A stretch of 6,029 nt of DNA from positions 1-6,029 of IMG/VR virus record IMGVR_UViG_3300045988_004635; one strand, given 5' to 3'. Within the stretch, counting starts at the first letter, position 1. Each line of letters opens with the position of its first letter. This document shows positions 1 through 6,029 of this stretch, in pieces. A program made the translations under genes and the position numbers. The stretch is from a virus. The notes under the pieces are model-generated. The model searched no databases. It had not been told where the DNA came from and saw only the letters and a program-made list of their open reading frames with translations.

Positions 1-55
1 AAAGATGATGGAAGCTGAAAACCCACAAAGGTTGTGGAGAATTAAGCAGAACAGA
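1..55. repeat. Left copy of a 55-nt terminal direct repeat, identical to 5975-6029. This is the overlap of a circular contig; the unit genome is 5,974 nt.
   Basis: Base-by-base comparison: aaagatgatggaagctgaaaacccacaaaggttgtggagaattaagcagaacaga occurs at both ends. The rep reading frame is continuous across the junction. Confidence 0.95.
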
Positions 56-172
56 CAAGCAGCAGCAATAGAAGCAAACCGTAAAAAATACGAAAACGCA
101 GACTTTGCAGAGCAATGTAAGACAAAAGAAAGAGTAATCAAAAAGCAGATGAAAAAGAGAGGGACACTTTAA
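1..172 (+). CDS. VP4: Replication initiation protein (Microviridae VP4/Rep), C-terminal ~57 codons. It continues 5127..6029 across the circular junction. Stop is TAA at 170-172.
   Basis: Codons starting at position 2 read KMMEAENPQRLWRIKQNRQAAAIEANRKKYENADFAEQCKTKERVIKKQMKKRGTL*. The first 18 residues duplicate the end of the open frame at 5976-6029. Joined length is 1,020 nt (339 aa). Confidence 0.9.
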   Translation, partial: KMMEAENPQRLWRIKQNRQAAAIEANRKKYENADFAEQCKTKERVIKKQMKKRGTL

Positions 173-190
173 CAGTGTCATGGTGTCACC

Positions 191-224
191 TAGCCCAGTA
201 CCTATCAAGTAAGGTACTGGGCTA
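191..224 (+). other. Perfect hairpin with a 12-bp stem, TAGCCCAGTACC (191-202) pairing with GGTACTGGGCTA (213-224), and a 10-nt loop. It lies 19 nt after the rep stop. It may be a transcript-end or ssDNA structural element.
   Basis: All 12 pairs checked by hand; t203-a212 could add a 13th. There is no clean T-run after the stem (tattagatt), so it is not a textbook intrinsic terminator. Confidence 0.75.
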
Positions 225-283
225 TATTAGATTAAAAGCTCCATGTATCGCTTTATTCAGTCTATCAAATAGCTATGTCTTAT

Positions 284-326
284 CGCGCGTGCACGCGCGC
301 GCGAAGCGCGCACGCGCGCACGCGCG
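284..326. repeat. Alternating pyrimidine-purine CG-rich island with two tracts, 284-303 (20 nt) and 306-326 (21 nt). It contains a 16-bp perfect palindrome CGCGCGTGCACGCGCG (284-299), the 8-mer CACGCGCG three times (292-299, 311-318, 319-326) plus one inverted copy (284-291), and GCGAAGC at 301-307.
   Basis: Read directly from the sequence. The flanks are AT-rich, so the island stands out sharply. Confidence 0.9.
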
Positions 327-403
327 GCCTTTTCGGCGCTGTTGTTCGCAAGCTCACAAGCGCCGTATATTATATAACTTGTTGTAGCCGTAGTAGTAGA
401 GAC

Positions 404-412
404 TGTGGAAAA
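404..412 (-). promoter_or_regulatory. DnaA-box-like 9-mer TGTGGAAAA, the reverse complement of TTTTCCACA. It fits the relaxed consensus TTWTNCACA.
   Basis: Exact 9-mer, repeated at 541-549. Each copy is followed by a similar ..TG(T)TGAWAAC context. Confidence 0.35.
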
Positions 413-540
413 GTTGATAACAGTAAAAATTATCCGTTATCACGTTATTTTTAAGAGAAATCACTAGTTGAAAGTCTTGTTAAAAACTTGTTGAAATGTT
501 AAAAGTTAGTCAAAATGACGAAAATCGTTGTGCAACATTT

Positions 541-549
541 TGTGGAAAA
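541..549 (-). promoter_or_regulatory. Second DnaA-box-like 9-mer TGTGGAAAA, immediately upstream of the tandem iterons.
   Basis: Identical to 404-412 and fits TTWTNCACA on the - strand. Confidence 0.35.
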
Positions 550-550
550 C

Positions 551-577
551 CTGTTGAAACTGTTGAAACTGTTGAAA
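551..577. repeat. Three perfect tandem copies of the 9-bp unit CTGTTGAAA (551-559, 560-568, 569-577). This is an iteron-like array.
   Basis: Read directly. Degenerate copies lie upstream: TAGTTGAAA 465-473, TTGTTAAAA 477-485, TTGTTGAAA 488-496. CTGTTG also occurs at 339-344. Confidence 0.9.
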
Positions 578-718
578 ACGCGCAAGCGCGCAAGGAGTGG
601 ATTTAGCCGAGCTCCGCGTTCGCTGCGCACGGCAAGGCGCTAAAGCGCCATTCAAAACAAAGGAACAAAACCAGATTACAAGAGAAGGTTACAAATATAT
701 TACAAAACAACAAAACTA

Positions 719-747
719 TAGAAAATCCTATTGACAAGTGATATAAT
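719..747 (+). promoter_or_regulatory. Candidate sigma-70/sigma-A type promoter with an extended -10 element, driving the gene string that starts at 776.
   Basis: TATAAT at 742-747 is preceded by TG at 739-740 (TGaTATAAT). TAGAAA at 719-724 gives a 17-nt spacer (4/6 match to TTGACA). The Shine-Dalgarno at 761-767 follows 14 nt later. A perfect TTGACA at 731-736 is only 5 nt from the -10, so it cannot be its -35. Confidence 0.5.
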
Positions 748-775
748 AAAGTCAGAGAAGAAAGGAGCAAAACCT

Positions 776-1003
776 ATGAAAAAATTCTACGAAATCAGTT
801 TCTGGACTAAAAAAGGCGGTGAGCAAAAGTGGAAAATCCACATTGAAGCAAAAAACGCAAAGGAAGCAAAAGAAATTGCAACTCTTGAATGGGAAAACGA
901 CAATCGTCTAAACGGAATGCACCGATTCACTATCAATGTCAGAATCTTAAAAGACAATGAGGAATTTAAGTGGCACTATTTCACAAAAATAAAGGAGACT
1001 TGA
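776..1003 (+). CDS. Hypothetical protein, 75 aa (MKKFYEISFWTKKGGEQKWKIHIEAK...). No family recognised.
   Basis: ATG at 776 is preceded by AAAGGAG (761-767) with an 8-nt spacer. The track ORF start at 731 is a TTG that is really the TTGACA hexamer. The ORF is tightly packed against the next gene. Confidence 0.7.
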   Translation: MKKFYEISFWTKKGGEQKWKIHIEAKNAKEAKEIATLEWENDNRLNGMHRFTINVRILKDNEEFKWHYFTKIKET

Positions 1004-1008
1004 CAAAA

Positions 1009-1398
1009 ATGATTAAATGCTATATCATGGACACAGACGCAAACGAAAATGTTGGAAAACATTTCAAGGTAAAAGAATTTGCTTGCAAAGACGGCTCTCA
1101 GGTAGTTTTCATAGACGACTATTTAGTATCTATCCTTGACATACTCAGAAATCAAATCGGCAAACCGGTACACATAAACAGCGGATACCGGACGCCGGCA
1201 AGAAATAAAGCCGTAAACGGTGCGAAATACTCGTACCATATGCGAGGAATGGCAGCAGATATCCGGGTCAATGGCATGAGTGCCAAAGAGGTTGCCAACA
1301 AGCTGAATAAAATTGTCCCGGCAGAATGCGGTATCATCGTATACAGTACATGGGTACACATCGACACACGCAAAAAAAAATACAGAAAGGGGGTGTAA
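1009..1398 (+). CDS. Zinc peptidase of the M15 family (Peptidase_M15_3 / YcbK-DUF882-like D-Ala-D-Ala carboxypeptidase fold), 129 aa. Probable peptidoglycan hydrolase.
   Basis: Motifs read from the translation: HFKVKEFACKDG; INSGYRTPARN; SYHMRGMAADI (H-x6-D zinc ligands); WVHID (third ligand). ATG at 1009 follows AAAGGAG (991-997). The GTG at 970 in the track has no Shine-Dalgarno and overlaps the previous gene. Confidence 0.88.
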   Translation: MIKCYIMDTDANENVGKHFKVKEFACKDGSQVVFIDDYLVSILDILRNQIGKPVHINSGYRTPARNKAVNGAKYSYHMRGMAADIRVNGMSAKEVANKLNKIVPAECGIIVYSTWVHIDTRKKKYRKGV

Positions 1399-1400
1399 AA

Positions 1401-1505
1401 ATGGCACTGGTAAGTCTGAAAGACATTAAGCAGGCAATCGCAGTACTGCGGGAAATCCTCGAAAAGCTGGACGAAATCTACCACGCTCTGCACGACAAGA
1501 GCTGA
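1401..1505 (+). CDS. Small hypothetical protein, 34 aa (MALVSLKDIKQAIAVLREILEKLDEIYHALHDKS), predicted to be a single amphipathic helix.
   Basis: ATG at 1401 is 7 nt after AAGGGGG (1387-1393) and 2 nt after the peptidase stop. It fills an otherwise empty gap before the next Shine-Dalgarno. It is below the length cut-off of the ORF track. Confidence 0.4.
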   Translation: MALVSLKDIKQAIAVLREILEKLDEIYHALHDKS

Positions 1506-1520
1506 AAAAGGAGAACAGCA

Positions 1521-1745
1521 ATGATAAAACCATGGAATGTACGTGACCAGACCAAAGAAGCTCTTGAAGAGCTATTAAGACGTAAATACAAGGAGATAGA
1601 CGGCAACTTCAAAATACTGAAAAAAATCTCAAACATCAACGATGCAAAGAAGCTGTTAGACGAAATCTGGCAGATGAAGAGCTTTACGAACGCAATCGAG
1701 ATGGAGCTTATCAGAAGGGAGTATAACGATGGCACGACATCGTAA
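1521..1745 (+). CDS. Hypothetical protein, 74 aa, charged and helical (MIKPWNVRDQTKEALEELLRRKYKEIDG...).
   Basis: ATG at 1521 follows AAAGGAG (1507-1513) with a 7-nt spacer. It overlaps the next gene by 17 nt, which is typical microvirus packing. Confidence 0.7.
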   Translation: MIKPWNVRDQTKEALEELLRRKYKEIDGNFKILKKISNINDAKKLLDEIWQMKSFTNAIEMELIRREYNDGTTS

Positions 1746-1851
1746 GAGGATGAGCGGCGCAAAAGACCGCCGTATGTTCAACGTAACCGCACGCAAAACC
1801 AAGACTATCAACCTCAGCCAGAAGCCTATGCGCGGTGGAATCCGGCTGTAA
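1729..1851 (+). CDS. Small basic DNA-binding/packaging protein, 40 aa. It is the gokushovirus ORF8 type and the functional analogue of phiX174 protein J.
   Basis: Translation is MARHRKRMSGAKDRRMFNVTARKTKTINLSQKPMRGGIRL. It is Arg/Lys-rich and has the C-terminal MRGGIR[LF] signature I recall from Chlamydia-phage ORF8-like proteins. GGGAG at 1717-1721 lies 7 nt before the ATG. It is too short for the ORF track. Confidence 0.82.
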   Translation: MARHRKRMSGAKDRRMFNVTARKTKTINLSQKPMRGGIRL

Positions 1852-1869
1852 GAGAAAAGGAGCAAAACA

Positions 1870-2109
1870 ATGAAACACAACTACTACGGAATCTGGGACA
1901 GTGTAGCAAAATGTTACGCATGGGTTGGTGAGAGCAAGAACGATGCAACCTTTGCGCGTATGTGCAACGTGATGGCAAAGGACGAAAAAACCTTCATTGG
2001 GCAGAGCCCGCAGGACTACACCGGCTTTAAGCTGGCAGAATTCGAAGACGAGACGGGACTTTTCCAGAACTGGAAAGAAAAAGTATGGGAGGGCAAGCCG
2101 AATGAATAA
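1870..2109 (+). CDS. Conserved small non-structural protein of gokushovirus-like Microviridae, 79 aa.
   Basis: AAAGGAG (1856-1862) lies 7 nt before the ATG. The pattern YGIWDSVA..Y....KND..FAR.....KT.IG.SPQDY..F.L.EFEDETGLF resembles the family pattern (..I.D.KA..F...F...ND..A.R.F....PEDF.L..IG.FDD.TG) as I recall it. Confidence 0.78.
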   Translation: MKHNYYGIWDSVAKCYAWVGESKNDATFARMCNVMAKDEKTFIGQSPQDYTGFKLAEFEDETGLFQNWKEKVWEGKPNE

Positions 2110-2509
2110 ACGATACGAGGAAGGGCGAAAGCCCTTCTTTTCGGATGCAGGCGAAAACGAACGAAAGCAGTACGTCTGGGCAAAAGACGAAAACGGCGAA
2201 GAATACCTTCAAGAGACAGCATCTATCGACATTCAGGCTGAAATCGAAAGCTATGCAGACGAGTGTGATATTAAAAACATCGTGCGGAAAGCAAGTTTCG
2301 ACCCGGAATTTCTGAAAAGTCTATCACAAGGCGCAATAACCACAGAGGAAACGCCAATCACAGACATCACGGAATTTCCGCAGAATATCCACGAGTATCA
2401 CCAGATGATGGCAACGGCACAGGCAAAAGCCATGGAGCTGGCAAAGCTACAGGAGATGGCAAAAACAGAGCCTAAACCGAAAACCGAAGCAAAGGAGGAA
2501 GAACAGTGA
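2102..2509 (+). CDS. VP3: Internal scaffolding protein VP3, 135 aa.
   Basis: ATG at 2102 is 9 nt after GGAGG (2088-2092) and overlaps the previous stop (ATGAATAA). It contains the ECDIKNIVRK motif typical of gokushovirus VP3 (..ECDI.NI..) and has an acidic/Lys-rich tail. The 35-codon upstream extension in the track (from 1997) has no Shine-Dalgarno and lies inside the previous gene. Confidence 0.8.
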   Translation: MNKRYEEGRKPFFSDAGENERKQYVWAKDENGEEYLQETASIDIQAEIESYADECDIKNIVRKASFDPEFLKSLSQGAITTEETPITDITEFPQNIHEYHQMMATAQAKAMELAKLQEMAKTEPKPKTEAKEEEQ

Positions 2510-4215
2510 ACAGAAACAACGAAAGACGCTTTCTGAATGTGCCACAGATGCACACAAGCAGAACGCGTTTTAACCGTGACCAGACGATTTTAACCACGTT
2601 TGACAGCGGCAAACTTATCCCGTTTTTCGTAGATGAAGTGTTGCCGGGCGACACTTTCCAAATCGACACAAGCGCGATCATCCGAATGACCACGCCTAAG
2701 TATCCGGTCATGGATGATGCGTTCATAGACTTCTACTACTTCTATTGTCCAAACAGAATCCTGTGGGATGACTTCAAATACTTCATGGGAGAAGTAGAGG
2801 ACAAGCCATGGGCACCGACCAAAGATTACAGAGTACCGGAACTAGCATGCATTGGAAGTGAAAAAAACCCAGTGCCATACGAAAGAAGCATTCTAGACTA
2901 TATGGGAGTGCCAACAAAAATCAAAAAAGAATTCAGAATAAACGCGCTGCCGGTACGAGCCTATGTAAAAATCTGGAATGAATACTTCAGAGATGAAAAC
3001 GTAGAAAACAGAGCAGTGCTAGTAACAGCTGGACAAGATGAAGCATACCAGGATTCATACAGTGCAGCATACCCAACTCCAGGCACAAAAGAAAATCTGG
3101 ACGATACGCTTAAAAAAGCATACACCGGTGGACGATGCTTGCCAGTAAACAAGTTCCATGACTACTTCACAAGCTGTTTACCTTATCCGCAGAGAGGGCC
3201 GGAAGTAACATTACCGTTAGGTGGTAACGCACCGGTTGGATTGTATAAAGACACAGCGCTAACACAGTTTGGAACGGTAGGAGGACACGCGGGAATTTAT
3301 TTGAACCAGACGCTAAGCGGAAGCGCACTTGCACCAAATATCGGTAACAGCCAAAACGAAAACTACAAAGGATATGCGCTAGTAGCAGGCAGTTCAGACC
3401 CGACAAATCAAGTAAACGACACGGCCTATTTAGGTGCAGATCTGACAAGGGTAACCGCAGCAACAATCAACGACTTGCGAAATGCTGTTGCAGTGCAGCA
3501 GTACTACGAAGCCCTGGCGCGCGGTGGCAGCAGGTATCGCGAACAGATACAGGCACTATGGAACGTCACAATCAGCGACAAAACGGTACAGATTCCCGAA
3601 TATTTGGGCGGTGGACGCTATCACATCAACATGAATCAGATTGTTCAGACGAGCAGCCAGCAAAACGAAACAGATACACCCATCGGCGAAACTGGCGCAA
3701 TGTCAGTAACACCGGTAAATGAAAGCAGTTTCACAAAATCGTTCGAGGAGCACGGCTTTGTAATCGGTGTAATGTGTGTTCGTCATAATCACAGCTACCA
3801 GCAGGGACTTGAGCGTTTCTGGAGCAGAAGAGACAGACTAGACTACTATGTACCACAGTTTGCAAACCTTGGCGAGCAGCCTGTAAAGAAAAAGGAAATC
3901 ATGCTGACCGGTAACAAGTCAGACGAAGAAACATTCGGCTATCAGGAAGCATGGGCAGAATACCGGATGAAACCAAACCGTGTAAGCGGGCTTATGAGAA
4001 GCAACGCAACAGGATCTCTGGACTTCTGGCACTATGCAGACAACTATTCAACCGTGCCGACACTGTCGCAAGGCTGGATGGTAGAAGGAAAGGACGAAAT
4101 CGCAAGAACGCTCATCGTTCAAGACGAACCGCAGTTCTTCGGAGCAATCCGCGTAGCAAACAAAACTACCCGTTGTATGCCGCTGTACAGCGTACCGGGG
4201 CTGTACAAACTGTAA
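2506..4215 (+). CDS. VP1: Major capsid protein VP1 (Microviridae F-type jelly-roll), 569 aa.
   Basis: Hallmark motifs: TTFDSGKLIPFFVDEVLPGDTF, YFYCPNRILWD, RAYVKIWNEYFRD, TINDLRNAVAVQQYYEALARGGSRY, GFVIGVMCVR. The GTG start at 2506 is 7 nt after AAGGAGG (2492-2498) and overlaps the VP3 stop as GTGA. Confidence 0.97.
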   Translation: MNRNNERRFLNVPQMHTSRTRFNRDQTILTTFDSGKLIPFFVDEVLPGDTFQIDTSAIIRMTTPKYPVMDDAFIDFYYFYCPNRILWDDFKYFMGEVEDKPWAPTKDYRVPELACIGSEKNPVPYERSILDYMGVPTKIKKEFRINALPVRAYVKIWNEYFRDENVENRAVLVTAGQDEAYQDSYSAAYPTPGTKENLDDTLKKAYTGGRCLPVNKFHDYFTSCLPYPQRGPEVTLPLGGNAPVGLYKDTALTQFGTVGGHAGIYLNQTLSGSALAPNIGNSQNENYKGYALVAGSSDPTNQVNDTAYLGADLTRVTAATINDLRNAVAVQQYYEALARGGSRYREQIQALWNVTISDKTVQIPEYLGGGRYHINMNQIVQTSSQQNETDTPIGETGAMSVTPVNESSFTKSFEEHGFVIGVMCVRHNHSYQQGLERFWSRRDRLDYYVPQFANLGEQPVKKKEIMLTGNKSDEETFGYQEAWAEYRMKPNRVSGLMRSNATGSLDFWHYADNYSTVPTLSQGWMVEGKDEIARTLIVQDEPQFFGAIRVANKTTRCMPLYSVPGLYKL

Positions 4216-4225
4216 GAAAGGAGGA

Positions 4226-4252
4226 AGCCCGGGCAAAACCCGGGCTATTTTT
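4226..4252 (+). terminator. Intrinsic-terminator-like hairpin after VP1: an 8-bp stem AGCCCGGG/CCCGGGCT, loop CAAAA, then A-TTTTT.
   Basis: Stem 4226-4233 pairs with 4239-4246 (checked by hand). T-run is at 4248-4252. It sits between the VP2 Shine-Dalgarno (4217-4224) and the VP2 ATG (4255). Confidence 0.7.
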
Positions 4253-4254
4253 AA

Positions 4255-5130
4255 ATGGCAGCCTTATCAACATTCTTAACCGCACTCAACATAGCGGGAA
4301 ACGTTGCAAACACGGTTGGAACATTCGCAAATGCTGGAAAACAAATCGCAGGAGCATTTGGAGGATGGGGGCAAACAGGCAACAGCCAAAGCAGCGGAGG
4401 AAGCACACAGCAAGGCGGTGGACACTCTGAAAGCGGAAGTCAATCAGGAACAAACGTGCAGCAGGTTGATGACTGGCTTAAACAGGCATATGCATACCAA
4501 GGACAAGAAAGCGCCATGCAGGGCAAATACAACAGCCAAAGTATGTTAAAACAGATGGGATACAACACCTTACAAGCAATTATGCAGGGCGTATACAATC
4601 ACATCGAAAATAGCGTAGCCATGAACTACAACAGTGCAGAAGCACTAGCAAACAGAGAATGGCAAGAACATATGTCAAACACGGCATATCAGAGAGCCGT
4701 AGAGGACATGAAAAAAGCAGGGATTAACCCAATACTTGCATTTGCAAACGGAGGAGCAAGCACACCGGGAGGAAGTGCAGGAACAATCAGCGGAACAAGT
4801 ATGGGGCTGGCAAGCAGCAGCGCACTTGGAGTAAGTCGAAGCGGAGGATTTGTACCAAACGCATACGAAAGCTCTAGTTGGTCACAAAGTGACTGGTTTA
4901 ATGCCGCGCAAAGCTGGCAACAGATGCTCAGCACAACACAAATGACACCTTACGGACTACAGAAAGCCTTAACCGAAATCGGAGACGACACCGGAAAAGC
5001 AATCCAAAAGAGCGTAAAGACCAATACAAAAATCCAAGGAAACACACACGGAAACAGACAAACCGAAATGAGACAAGACAAAACTGGAAGCTATGGTGAA
5101 AAAAGAAAGCCGGGTGACTATTTAAGGTGA
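4255..5130 (+). CDS. VP2: Minor capsid / DNA pilot protein VP2, 291 aa.
   Basis: Hydrophobic N-terminus and Gly/Ser/Gln-rich linkers. It has the conserved core REWQEHMSNTAYQRAVEDMKKAGINPILAF, characteristic of microvirus VP2. It lies directly after VP1. Confidence 0.9.
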   Translation: MAALSTFLTALNIAGNVANTVGTFANAGKQIAGAFGGWGQTGNSQSSGGSTQQGGGHSESGSQSGTNVQQVDDWLKQAYAYQGQESAMQGKYNSQSMLKQMGYNTLQAIMQGVYNHIENSVAMNYNSAEALANREWQEHMSNTAYQRAVEDMKKAGINPILAFANGGASTPGGSAGTISGTSMGLASSSALGVSRSGGFVPNAYESSSWSQSDWFNAAQSWQQMLSTTQMTPYGLQKALTEIGDDTGKAIQKSVKTNTKIQGNTHGNRQTEMRQDKTGSYGEKRKPGDYLR

Positions 5131-6029
5131 GTTGTTACAAGCCATTAATAAGGCTGTACAATCCCGAAAACAAAGAAATAAGCGGGCGGGTGTATTCACT
5201 CGCCCGTTTTTCAGAAATATCGGGAAAACAGCTAAAATATGAAGATTTAATGTACAGAAAAGATGTAATGTTGATACCATGCGGGCAATGCATCGGATGT
5301 AGAATCAGACAACGCGAGGACTGGACAACACGCATAGAGTTAGAAGCAAGAGATTATCCAAGGGAAGAAGTATGGTTTATTACACTAACCTATGATGATG
5401 ATCACGTACCGGGTATGATAATCGAGACAGGCGAAATCATGCGAAAAGTGCAATACGTCTGGAAACCGAATAAGAAGCGTCCTGAAAGCGTCCAAACGTT
5501 GCTATATACTGACGTTCAAAAATTCTTAAAACGTCTCAGAAAGGCTTACAGGGGCAAATTACGCTATTTTGTAGCGGGAGAATACGGAGAGCAGACAGCA
5601 AGACCGCATTACCACATGATACTATACGGATGGCAACCGACAGACCTAGAAAATCTATACAAGATACACCACAACGGATACTATACTAGTAAATGGTTAG
5701 CAGACCTATGGGGCATGGGTCAGATACAGATAGCACAAGCAGTACCAGAAACATATAGATATGTTGCAGGGTATGTAACCAAAAAAATGTATGAAATAGA
5801 CGGAAAGAAAGGAAATGAATATTATGAACTAGGGCAGCAAAAACCGTTCGCTTGTATGAGCCTTAAACCAGGTCTAGGAGATAACTATTACAAAAAACAC
5901 AAGGCCGAAATCTGGAAGCAAGGCTACATCCAATGTACAAACGGAAAGCACGCACAGATACCACGCTATTACGAAAAGATGATGGAAGCTGAAAACCCAC
6001 AAAGGTTGTGGAGAATTAAGCAGAACAGA
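5127..6029 (+). CDS. VP4: Replication initiation protein VP4 (HUH rolling-circle endonuclease), N-terminal 301 codons. It is open at the window edge and completed by 1..172.
   Basis: No stop codon from 5118 to 6029 in this frame (translated by hand). N-terminus is (M)SCYKPLIRLYNP. Other motifs: CGQCIGCR; motif I FITLTY (5376-5393); HUH motif RPHYHMILYG (HYH at 5607-5615); two-tyrosine motif YVAGYVTKK (5760-5786), compare phiX174 A protein YVAKYVNK. The GTG start at 5127 overlaps the VP2 stop as GTGA. An in-frame TGA at 5115-5117 bounds the frame upstream. Confidence 0.93.
   Translation, partial: MSCYKPLIRLYNPENKEISGRVYSLARFSEISGKQLKYEDLMYRKDVMLIPCGQCIGCRIRQREDWTTRIELEARDYPREEVWFITLTYDDDHVPGMIIETGEIMRKVQYVWKPNKKRPESVQTLLYTDVQKFLKRLRKAYRGKLRYFVAGEYGEQTARPHYHMILYGWQPTDLENLYKIHHNGYYTSKWLADLWGMGQIQIAQAVPETYRYVAGYVTKKMYEIDGKKGNEYYELGQQKPFACMSLKPGLGDNYYKKHKAEIWKQGYIQCTNGKHAQIPRYYEKMMEAENPQRLWRIKQNR
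5183..5211 (+). terminator. Intrinsic-terminator-like hairpin inside the rep coding sequence: a 10-bp stem (one G-T/G-U wobble), loop TATT, then TTTTT.
   Basis: CGGGCGGGTG (5183-5192) pairs with CACTCGCCCG (5197-5206). T-run is at 5207-5211. It lies 57-85 nt downstream of the rep start and the VP2 stop. Confidence 0.6.
5975..6029. repeat. Right copy of the 55-nt terminal direct repeat, identical to 1-55.
   Basis: Same comparison as for 1-55. Confidence 0.95.

Follow-up and report, generated by a model that had tools for sequence, protein, structure and literature searches.

The window analysed here spans positions 1 to 6,029 of IMG/VR virus record IMGVR_UViG_3300045988_004635; it holds a circular gokushovirus-type genome of 5974 nt, with positions 1-55 repeated at 5975-6029, and all genes in it lie on the + strand. 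Between the stop codon of the replication gene rep (170-172) and the ATG at 776 only open reading frames (ORFs) of at most 70 amino acids occur, in agreement with the original prediction, made from the sequence alone, of a gene-free block of 603 nt at 173-775. We divided this block into six modules, A (182-224), B (284-329), C (366-421), D (466-578), E (579-655) and F (656-775). Modules C and D always travel together among related genomes, as one cassette and independently of the other modules, and this cassette, which resembles the chromosomal replication origin (oriC) of the probable bacterial hosts, is the main subject of the present analysis. Its parts are the following:

366-578, no strand assigned: the oriC-like cassette, one unit made up of an AT-rich element, DnaA-trios and two sets of DnaA boxes, a proximal pair and a distal cluster
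366-377, no strand assigned: putative DNA unwinding element, the AT-only run TATATTATATAA (12 of 12 positions A or T); host origins are AT-rich at the same position
376-384, + strand: AACTTGTTG, found in all phage cassettes examined but lacking in host origins
385-399, + strand: DnaA-trio tract TAG CCG TAG TAG TAG, i.e. 3'-GAT-5' repeats on the + strand
400-403, no strand assigned: 4-nt spacer AGAC; many relatives have GGGG, GGAG or GGGC here, and hosts GGGG or GGTA
404-420, - strand: proximal DnaA-box pair, consisting of TTTTCCACA at 404-412 (0 mismatches to TTWTNCACA) and TTATCAACT at 412-420
466-504, - strand: four DnaA-type boxes, reading on the + strand AGTTGAAA, TGTTAAAA, TGTTGAAA and TGTTAAAA
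506-522, no strand assigned: palindrome TTAGTCA-AAA-TGACGAA; relatives have it as a perfect TTCGTCA-N3-TGACGAA, and some cassette variants carry other sequence in its place
541-577, - strand: four DnaA-type boxes, the perfect box TGTGGAAA and then TGTTGAAA three times at 9-nt spacing

On the minus strand, from 421 to 366, the sequence reads GTTATCAAC TTTTCCACA GTCT CTA CTA CTA CGG CTA CAACAAGTT ATATAATATA, that is, in this order, a box-like 9-mer, a perfect DnaA box, a 4-nt spacer, CTA triplets and the AT-only run. Module D contributes eight further boxes of the same sense, TGT[T/G]GAAA(A), giving ten boxes in the whole cassette. Where the original prediction had described a palindromic AT element beginning at 366 and a field of GTTGAAA-type repeats, the AT-only run was indeed found at 366-377, and the repeats amount to ten copies within 404-577 in one shared sense. 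The window has a single instance of the pattern (TAG)3, 0-16 nt, TGT[TG]GAAA, and 20,000 dinucleotide-preserving shuffles have none. Three consecutive trios (TAG TAG TAG) occupy 391-399, with one more TAG at 385-387, and the variable triplet of the tract is often also TAG in relatives, which yields (TAG)5-6 there. The element AACTTGTTG partly overlaps the AT-only run and separates it from the trios, and in relatives the second box of the tandem reads GTTGAAAAC.

In bacteria, the basal unwinding system (BUS) of oriC is made up of DnaA boxes, trios and an unwinding element (PMC8287927, PMC6669920), the DnaA-trio being defined in PMC8287927, PMC6669920 and PMC7561715, and a spacer of 0-16 bp leads from the box to the first trio (PMC8287927). 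The box beside the trios deviates from the consensus of the species by at most 2 mismatches and has a second, less conserved box in tandem with it, and the trios, at least three in a row, have a central A (3'-NAN-5', with GAT as the best form) on the strand dictated by the polarity of the boxes. For instance, the trio tract CACCTACTACTATTACTACTATGA of Clostridioides difficile oriC2 lies upstream of the unwinding element (PMC7561715). At the level of sequence the cassette corresponds to this system in every respect save chromosomal location: like the BUS of Bacillus subtilis incC (DnaA-boxes 6/7 and trios) and of C. difficile oriC2 (Richardson 2016/2019; Pelliciari 2021, PMC8287927; PMC7561715) it has a box pair, a short G-rich spacer, at least three polarised trios, an AT-rich element and distal boxes, but its place is a microvirus genome of 5974 nt, with rep on one side and the peptidase M15 gene on the other, and not a chromosome beside dnaA and dnaN. 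It further differs from these systems in being carried by a 6-kb single-stranded-DNA phage, in its AT element of 12 nt, in the additional AACTTGTTG, in its CG flanks, and in occurring in either orientation and at two positions relative to rep.

Across 117 distinct cassettes the logo of the repeat (n = 1032) is T G T [T 0.84/G 0.16] G A A A [A 0.59], with about nine copies per cassette, nearly all of them in one sense, and a density of 31.6/kb inside as compared to 0.55/kb outside the cassette; the number of boxes changes among relatives in units of 9 nt. Trios, spacer and AT run are the best-conserved part of the cassette, and the unwinding polarity is kept in all cassettes. In most of the cassettes examined the spacer is 4 nt long, and in a distant clade (Rep 37% and VP1 40% identical) it is 0 nt, both values lying within the range of the BUS. 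In addition, all of the 11 new microvirus contigs that were found via the box array alone have ACTTGTTG upstream of it, 8 of the 11 with the trio-spacer-box pattern, and in several GenBank relatives a 53-nt BUS core is all that is retained at BLAST level.

With respect to the bacterial side of this resemblance, a scan of one genome per bacterial species with three tandem GTTGAAA as query gave at least 120 loci, with no microvirus proteins encoded at any of those listed. Among the matches listed, the array lies beside dnaA in five loci, labelled Oscillospiraceae, Ruminococcus or Negativibacillus, and DnaA and DnaN were confirmed at the array loci by Pfam. In locus L165 the array is placed between dnaA and dnaN and reads, on the strand opposite in sense to dnaA, AT-rich-(TAG)5-GGGG-TGTTGAAAc-TGTTGAAAa, with over 15 additional boxes behind it. 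Loci L193, L128 and L232 resemble L165, with an AT-rich stretch, (TAG)n, GGGG or GGTA, and tandem TGTTGAAAc and (T/G)GT(T/G)GAAAa, the trios of L232 being TAG TAG TAA TAG, and the fifth locus, L205, has (TAG)6 with no consensus box adjacent to it. As an independent test, four origins were picked solely by DnaA homology (61-85% identity) and their contigs fetched; all four dnaA-dnaN spacers contain 10-36 boxes/kb as compared to 0-1.4/kb elsewhere. Each of them has a box, or a sequence like one, followed by CCCC or GCCC, triplets of the CTA type and AT-rich DNA, as exemplified by TTTCCACAgTTTCAACAccccCTACTACTACTA in a Ruminococcus sp. genome. Nine dnaA-dnaN origins of Oscillospiraceae/Ruminococcus type share the box, its flanking bases and the layout with the phages, L205 lacking the adjacent consensus box. 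The host box logo (n = 101) agrees with the phage logo also in the flanks that the search had left unconstrained, and the T/G ratio at position 4 is 0.79/0.21 in the former and 0.84/0.16 in the latter. In one phage clade (TAG)5-GGGG/GGAG-TGTTGAAA is 91% identical to the host BUS over 44 nt.

The canonical DnaA box is TTATCCACA, whereas the origins of the bacteria considered here use TTTTC[A/C]ACA boxes, and their DnaA proteins are of the RDHSTIVY type: the motif RDHST(I/V)(I/V)Y is found in 116 of 120 host-type DnaA homologues, as opposed to RDHTTV(I/L)H in B. subtilis, Aquifex and Escherichia coli. The changed Thr and His are residues of the DnaA helix which we take to contact bases in the structure of E. 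coli DnaA domain IV with DNA, and their change would fit the shift from C to A at box position 6. By sequence, the altered helix fits the shifted box preference and, together with the origins, points to a lineage-specific DnaA-box dialect in Oscillospiraceae/Ruminococcus-type bacteria. Since the cassette core matches the origin dialect of such bacteria, Oscillospiraceae/Ruminococcus-type Clostridia are the likely hosts of the phage. The TTTTC[A/C]ACA dialect and RDHSTIVY would in this way provide a sequence-based host call for a large clade of uncultured gokushoviruses from human and animal guts.

We regard the block as a composite non-coding control region whose core, 366-578, copies the chromosomal origin of the probable host, and assign to this a probability of about 0.55. 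That the cassette is a DnaA-binding copy of a host origin is highly probable, and the odds that it opens DNA or loads a replisome, beyond binding DnaA, appear about even. Its presence suggests that the phage recruits the host initiator DnaA. As to its identity, the original prediction had pointed out that replication origins of gokushovirus-like phages are not mapped by experiment; the match to the oriC layout argues for an element addressed by the host initiator in place of such an unmapped rolling-circle origin. The searchable literature yielded nothing relevant that links DnaA to Microviridae, gokushoviruses or microviruses, and as far as it shows this would be the first oriC-type DnaA-box/DnaA-trio/unwinding module in a microvirus. 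The unmapped replication control of gokushoviruses would thereby become experimentally addressable at defined bases. A pattern search of viral contigs for a BUS with canonical boxes (TAGTAGTAG-N0-8-TGTGGATAA) gave 46 matches and was discarded, those on small contigs being chance-like and having neither a box cluster nor an AT-rich run; a plasmid database search gave no match.

Most genomes have the modules arranged as rep-A-B-[C D]-E-F. Four close relatives, whose Rep is 90-93% identical, have the cassette alone inverted between B and E, with breakpoints at CG-rich tracts that are mutual inverted repeats (306-318 / 579-591), and in the distant clade it resides upstream of rep and opposite to the genes, E and F remaining downstream of rep. 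In all, it runs opposite to the genes in 26 of 116 genomes (~22%), adjoins rep in all cases, and is nearly unchanged across Rep proteins of 37-100% identity. On this comparative evidence the cassette is portable, with CG-rich inverted repeats at its borders, and an origin module could accordingly be passed between phages as a cassette in either orientation.

Three properties of the cassette make the double-stranded replicative form its most likely site of action, via host DnaA: as a single strand it does not fold stably (z +0.65 and -0.01), about 22% of the genomes carry it inverted or relocated, and it does not change with Rep over a range of 37-100% identity. There, host DnaA-ATP would occupy the boxes, the DnaA filament would extend along the trio strand, and the AT-rich element would melt next, the melted site being a DnaA-dependent entry for host helicase and primase. 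With the site open, the host replisome might replicate the replicative form or, alternatively, single-stranded DNA might become accessible to the HUH Rep of the phage. The phage-specific roles would be left to other modules, with the hairpin at 191-224 as a Rep-linked cis element and 719-747 as a promoter for the downstream genes. A multicopy replicative form carrying ten boxes would in any case titrate DnaA as a side effect.

A stronger version, in which the cassette is a working origin of host type where DnaA opens the replicative form at 366-399 and loads the replisome, so that Rep-independent replication resembling that of oriC minichromosomes is possible, is put forward only tentatively. 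If true, it would imply a plasmid-like carrier state in Oscillospiraceae/Ruminococcus hosts and competition with the chromosome for DnaA; the cassette could explain how gokushoviruses are carried over long periods, as seen in studies of the gut and in the laboratory (PMC7062461). In a variant reading, melting by DnaA licenses nicking by Rep at AACTTGTTG.

Several points weigh against a core copied from a host origin and acting as such. The AT-only element is, at 12 nt, shorter than chromosomal elements, the proximal box is degenerate in some relatives (e.g., CTGTAGAAA in KX513877), AACTTGTTG of every cassette lacks a counterpart in host origins, and a bipolar skew as a mark of bidirectional replication was looked for in the genome and not seen. 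We know of no rolling-circle phage that requires DnaA. The identification of TGTTGAAA as the DnaA box of these bacteria is an inference from its position, its density, the layout and the change in the DnaA helix, and the host dialect, which may or may not be confined to Oscillospirales-type bacteria, is drawn from nine origins, five of them among the scan matches listed. Finally, an identical sequence would also serve as a pure sink for DnaA.

This last point leads to the main rival of origin opening and helicase loading, namely DnaA titration, which we consider possible but distinctly the less probable account. The box cluster on the multicopy replicative form would soak up host DnaA with no role as an origin, and would thereby block or retime initiation at the host chromosome or tie phage promoters to the level of DnaA-ATP. 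The at least ten boxes per genome that match host origin boxes, a function independent of orientation and position, and a box number free to vary by 9-nt units are all as expected of a decoy. There are precedents for many same-sense boxes on non-origin DNA in E. coli datA, the DnaA-box clusters of B. subtilis and the injection-stop boxes of phage T5, the last being a precedent for a phage DnaA-box cluster without trios (bioRxiv 10.1101/866236); these, however, are without a trio tract or an unwinding element placed for melting. A sink needs boxes alone, yet it is the trios, the 4-nt spacer and the abutting AT-rich run that are best kept, with the polarity for unwinding, and in the GenBank relatives reduced at BLAST level it is the 53-nt BUS core that is left. 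Opening is therefore favoured over pure titration, because these parts are best kept and show melting polarity even in cassettes that were found by their boxes alone.

Far less probable is a rolling-circle origin in which the repeats are iterons for Rep (VP4) and the nick falls into the cassette, e.g. at AACTTG|TTG by analogy to CAACTTG|ATA of phiX174. The presence of AACTTGTTG in all cassettes and its absence from host origins, the AACTTG which it shares with the phiX174 nick site, and the constant position of the cassette next to rep would be in favour of this scenario. However, the iterons are unchanged for Rep proteins of 37-100% identity and equal host origin boxes, and the element that does track rep is the hairpin at 191-224. 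Matches to the phiX decamer (at most 2 mismatches) number 7 as compared to 5.8 expected, with none on the + strand in the conserved elements. Inversion would moreover switch the packaged strand, yet the skew of the coding strand at fourfold-degenerate sites is equal in clades with direct and with inverted cassettes. A Rep origin inside the cassette is unlikely because the iterons do not co-vary with Rep, the decamer occurs at chance level and the skew is unchanged.

The fourfold-degenerate sites of the window are very A-rich and T-poor on the coding strand (A 0.51, T 0.14), opposite to phiX174 (T 0.61), Chp2 (T 0.50) and SpV4 (T 0.65), with phiMH2K likewise A-rich (0.47). Packaging of the antisense strand had been considered on the basis of these A-rich sites and was dropped, given that phiMH2K is also A-rich and that the skew does not flip with the orientation of the cassette.

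Some mobile replicons borrow host DnaA. DnaA assists at the origins of pSC101, P1, F and RK2, and in R6K an 'A-site' hairpin builds a DnaA-dependent primosome. In contrast to the cassette, these systems have an iteron-binding initiator of their own or a one-box hairpin, whereas the boxes of the cassette lie outside hairpins and in a full chromosomal unwinding layout. An initiator encoded by the element itself and co-varying with iterons was not found in the genome, the iterons being the same across Rep proteins of 37-100% identity.

Still somewhat less probable than a Rep origin is an origin of the complementary strand, i.e. a cassette that folds in the injected viral strand and recruits primase or RNA polymerase in the manner of G4 oric, the phiX174 primosome assembly site, M13 ori or plasmid ssoA. 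Such a site is needed by every microvirus (PMC9865509), and the whole block is stable as single-stranded DNA (z -6.2). This stability, however, stems from hairpin A and the CG tract and not from the cassette, with its z values near zero; single-strand origins depend on orientation, and the cassette is inverted in 22% of the genomes, so that element E or hairpin A are better candidates. The viral-strand origin of phiX174 (30 nt in gene A), its primosome assembly site and G4 oric belong to the same virus family and are likewise cis sites beside or within rep, but they are sites for Rep, PriA or primase and do not depend on DnaA, and the window has no significant match to CAACTTGATA.

The region adjoining the cassette shows some resemblance to the ssoA-type single-strand origins of Gram-positive rolling-circle plasmids, which have an RSB (TTATGCCGAGAAAATTT) and a CS-6 (TAGCGT; PMC4598088) within a long, stable hairpin that depends on orientation: element E contains the RSB-like TTAGCCGAG, keeps one orientation and is, like these origins, a module exchanged between divergent replicons. 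However, with about 75 nt, no CS-6 on the + strand and a stability not above that of shuffled sequence (z -0.43), the likeness is weak.

By the comparison of 31 close relatives the block is non-coding and constrained. For the three codon positions, rep has site diversities of 0.069/0.033/0.258 and VP1 of 0.20/0.15/0.42; the values are flat in the block (0.159/0.135/0.172) and in the cassette (0.089/0.151/0.131), and no 3-nt periodicity was detected in the block, the cassette or the frame of ATG 515. Since the diversity of the block (0.12-0.16) is well under that of third codon positions (0.26-0.42), the block is, by this measure, under purifying selection. Its conservation extends to well over 100 genomes of related gokushoviruses, and it is matched in blastn by 69 GenBank phage records, the closest relatives of the genome being gokushoviruses from human, pig and monkey guts with 76-86% identity. 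The alignment with relatives that the original prediction had proposed reveals that the sub-elements are conserved in nested fashion and that no protein-coding frame is conserved across the block. A 21-mer from the core occurs in more than 120 IMG/VR contigs, nearly all of them microviruses of 5-6 kb; the few long contigs with this 21-mer were rejected as chance matches in low-complexity coding repeats.

A non-coding RNA locus or a hidden small gene is thus a most improbable account of the cassette: its only tempting ORF (42 amino acids from ATG 515, where a 69-aa 'hypothetical protein' is annotated in MG945233) has ATA, TTG or nothing as start in relatives, is frameshifted in the window against the annotated ORF and has no Shine-Dalgarno sequence, and a minus-strand promoter-like ACAAGTTATATAAT at the cassette end together with a terminator-like hairpin at 179-163 stand against zero Rfam and tRNA matches in the block, no stable fold and an orientation to promoters that is not kept. 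Of the alternatives left by the original prediction, which spoke of an origin/control region or a non-coding RNA locus as opposed to decayed coding sequence, the non-coding, modular and conserved control region holds, while the GTTGAAA field is unstructured, has no Rfam match and flips its orientation, and is hence not retained as RNA.

Two further candidates in or overlapping the cassette were rejected. A dif/XerCD site seen by eye at 355-385 has a variable AT-rich part upstream of ACTTG and no conserved XerC-like arm. The palindrome TTCGTCA-N3-TGACGAA fits what we take to be the Spo0A motif, TGNCGAA, but two of the three cassette variants lack it, and the C of the 0A box is a T in the main repeat; the Spo0A reading is not used here. 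Some cassettes (L119 1690-1705, L042/L044 and the distant clade) end in an inverted perfect box, TGTTGAAAAC-TCAA-GTTTTCCACA, an end which the window does not have; in single-stranded DNA this terminal box could form a hairpin carrying a double-stranded DnaA box.

The modules around the cassette comprise the following features:

163-179, + strand: small hairpin GACACT/AGTGTC, which spans the rep stop codon and on the minus strand is a terminator-like hairpin followed by CCTCTCTTTT
191-224, + strand: hairpin A, with a perfect 13-bp stem and the loop ATCAAGTA (single-stranded DNA z -6.0)
284-329, no strand assigned: alternating CG/CA tract, Z-DNA-prone and self-complementary, forming the left flank of the cassette, with 306-318 as inverted repeat of 579-591
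334-365, + strand: hairpin with a 7-bp GC-rich stem, CGGCGCT/AGCGCCG
579-655, + strand: element E, about 75 nt, always in gene orientation, with the small hairpin GGCGC-TAAA-GCGCC at 637-650
656-775, + strand: A-rich leader F, with TAGAAA (719-724), TG (739-740), TATAAT (742-747) and the Shine-Dalgarno sequence AAAGGAG (761-767)

The hairpin that had been predicted at 191-224 was recovered with 13 perfect pairs and an 8-nt loop, and the coordinates predicted for the CG island (284-329) and for the 7-bp stem (334-340/359-365) proved accurate. In an alignment of 63 distinct hairpin A sequences one stem pair is C:G in 48, A:T in 13 and T:A in 2, and the loop ATCAAGTA is conserved in the consensus. 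Hairpin A is always found directly after rep and in its orientation, and is confined to clades with Rep of at least 56% identity. By its linkage it is the best candidate for a Rep-linked cis element, i.e. a rolling-circle site; it is also a candidate for the terminator of rep.

Element E is 86-100% conserved, the distant clade included, and keeps gene orientation, as does the promoter-like site at 719-747. What had been described as a GC hairpin cluster at 578-650 is a conserved sequence, but its fold is no better than that of shuffled sequence, and covariation, of a closing pair, is seen only for the hairpin at 637-650. Element E is a candidate for a complementary-strand origin or a terminator. 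The promoter that had been expected in the leader was found as a promoter-like TG-n-TATAAT at 739-747. A 17-mer with the ribosome-binding site is repeated at 656-672 and 758-774 (AACAAAGGAACAAAACC and AAGAAAGGAGCAAAACC) and flanks the promoter segment, which looks, from these repeats, as if it had been inserted or duplicated.

Positions 368-382 and 734-748 are inverted repeats of one another over 15 nt (93%): the cassette is, at its left end, reverse-complementary to the -10 region of the promoter downstream (ACAAGTGATATAAT), and on the minus strand this end is promoter-like (ACAAGTTATATAAT) and directed away from the boxes. A 'single-strand promoter' formed by pairing of the two segments was discarded, as the motif varies (ACAAGT, ACATAT, ACATGT) and genomes whose cassette is inverted do not retain the pairing. 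Together with the minus-strand terminator-like hairpin at 179-163, the promoter-like end could bound an antisense RNA of about 200 nt.

The genes of the window relevant here are:

5127 through the junction to 172, + strand: rep (VP4), with the TAA stop codon at 170-172
776-1003, + strand: 75-aa ORF, with ATG at 776 and the strong Shine-Dalgarno sequence AAAGGAG at 761-767
1009-1398, + strand: peptidase M15 gene (Pfam), with small ORFs and then VP3 next downstream
2506-4215, + strand: VP1
4255-5130, + strand: VP2

For the 75-aa product of 776-1003, tblastn gave no homologue at any of about 116 related microvirus loci, and Pfam gave no match; the slot from elements E and F to the peptidase M15 gene seems to carry differing small genes across relatives. 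Elsewhere in the genome, terminator-like RNA hairpins with U runs are present on the + strand at 5181-5208, about 55 nt inside the 5' end of rep (z -6.9, with a sub-threshold match to Rfam 'Termite-leu'), at 2119-2138, about 17 nt inside the 5' end of VP3 (z -3.1), and at 4226-4246, between VP1 and VP2; these hairpins may act as attenuators.

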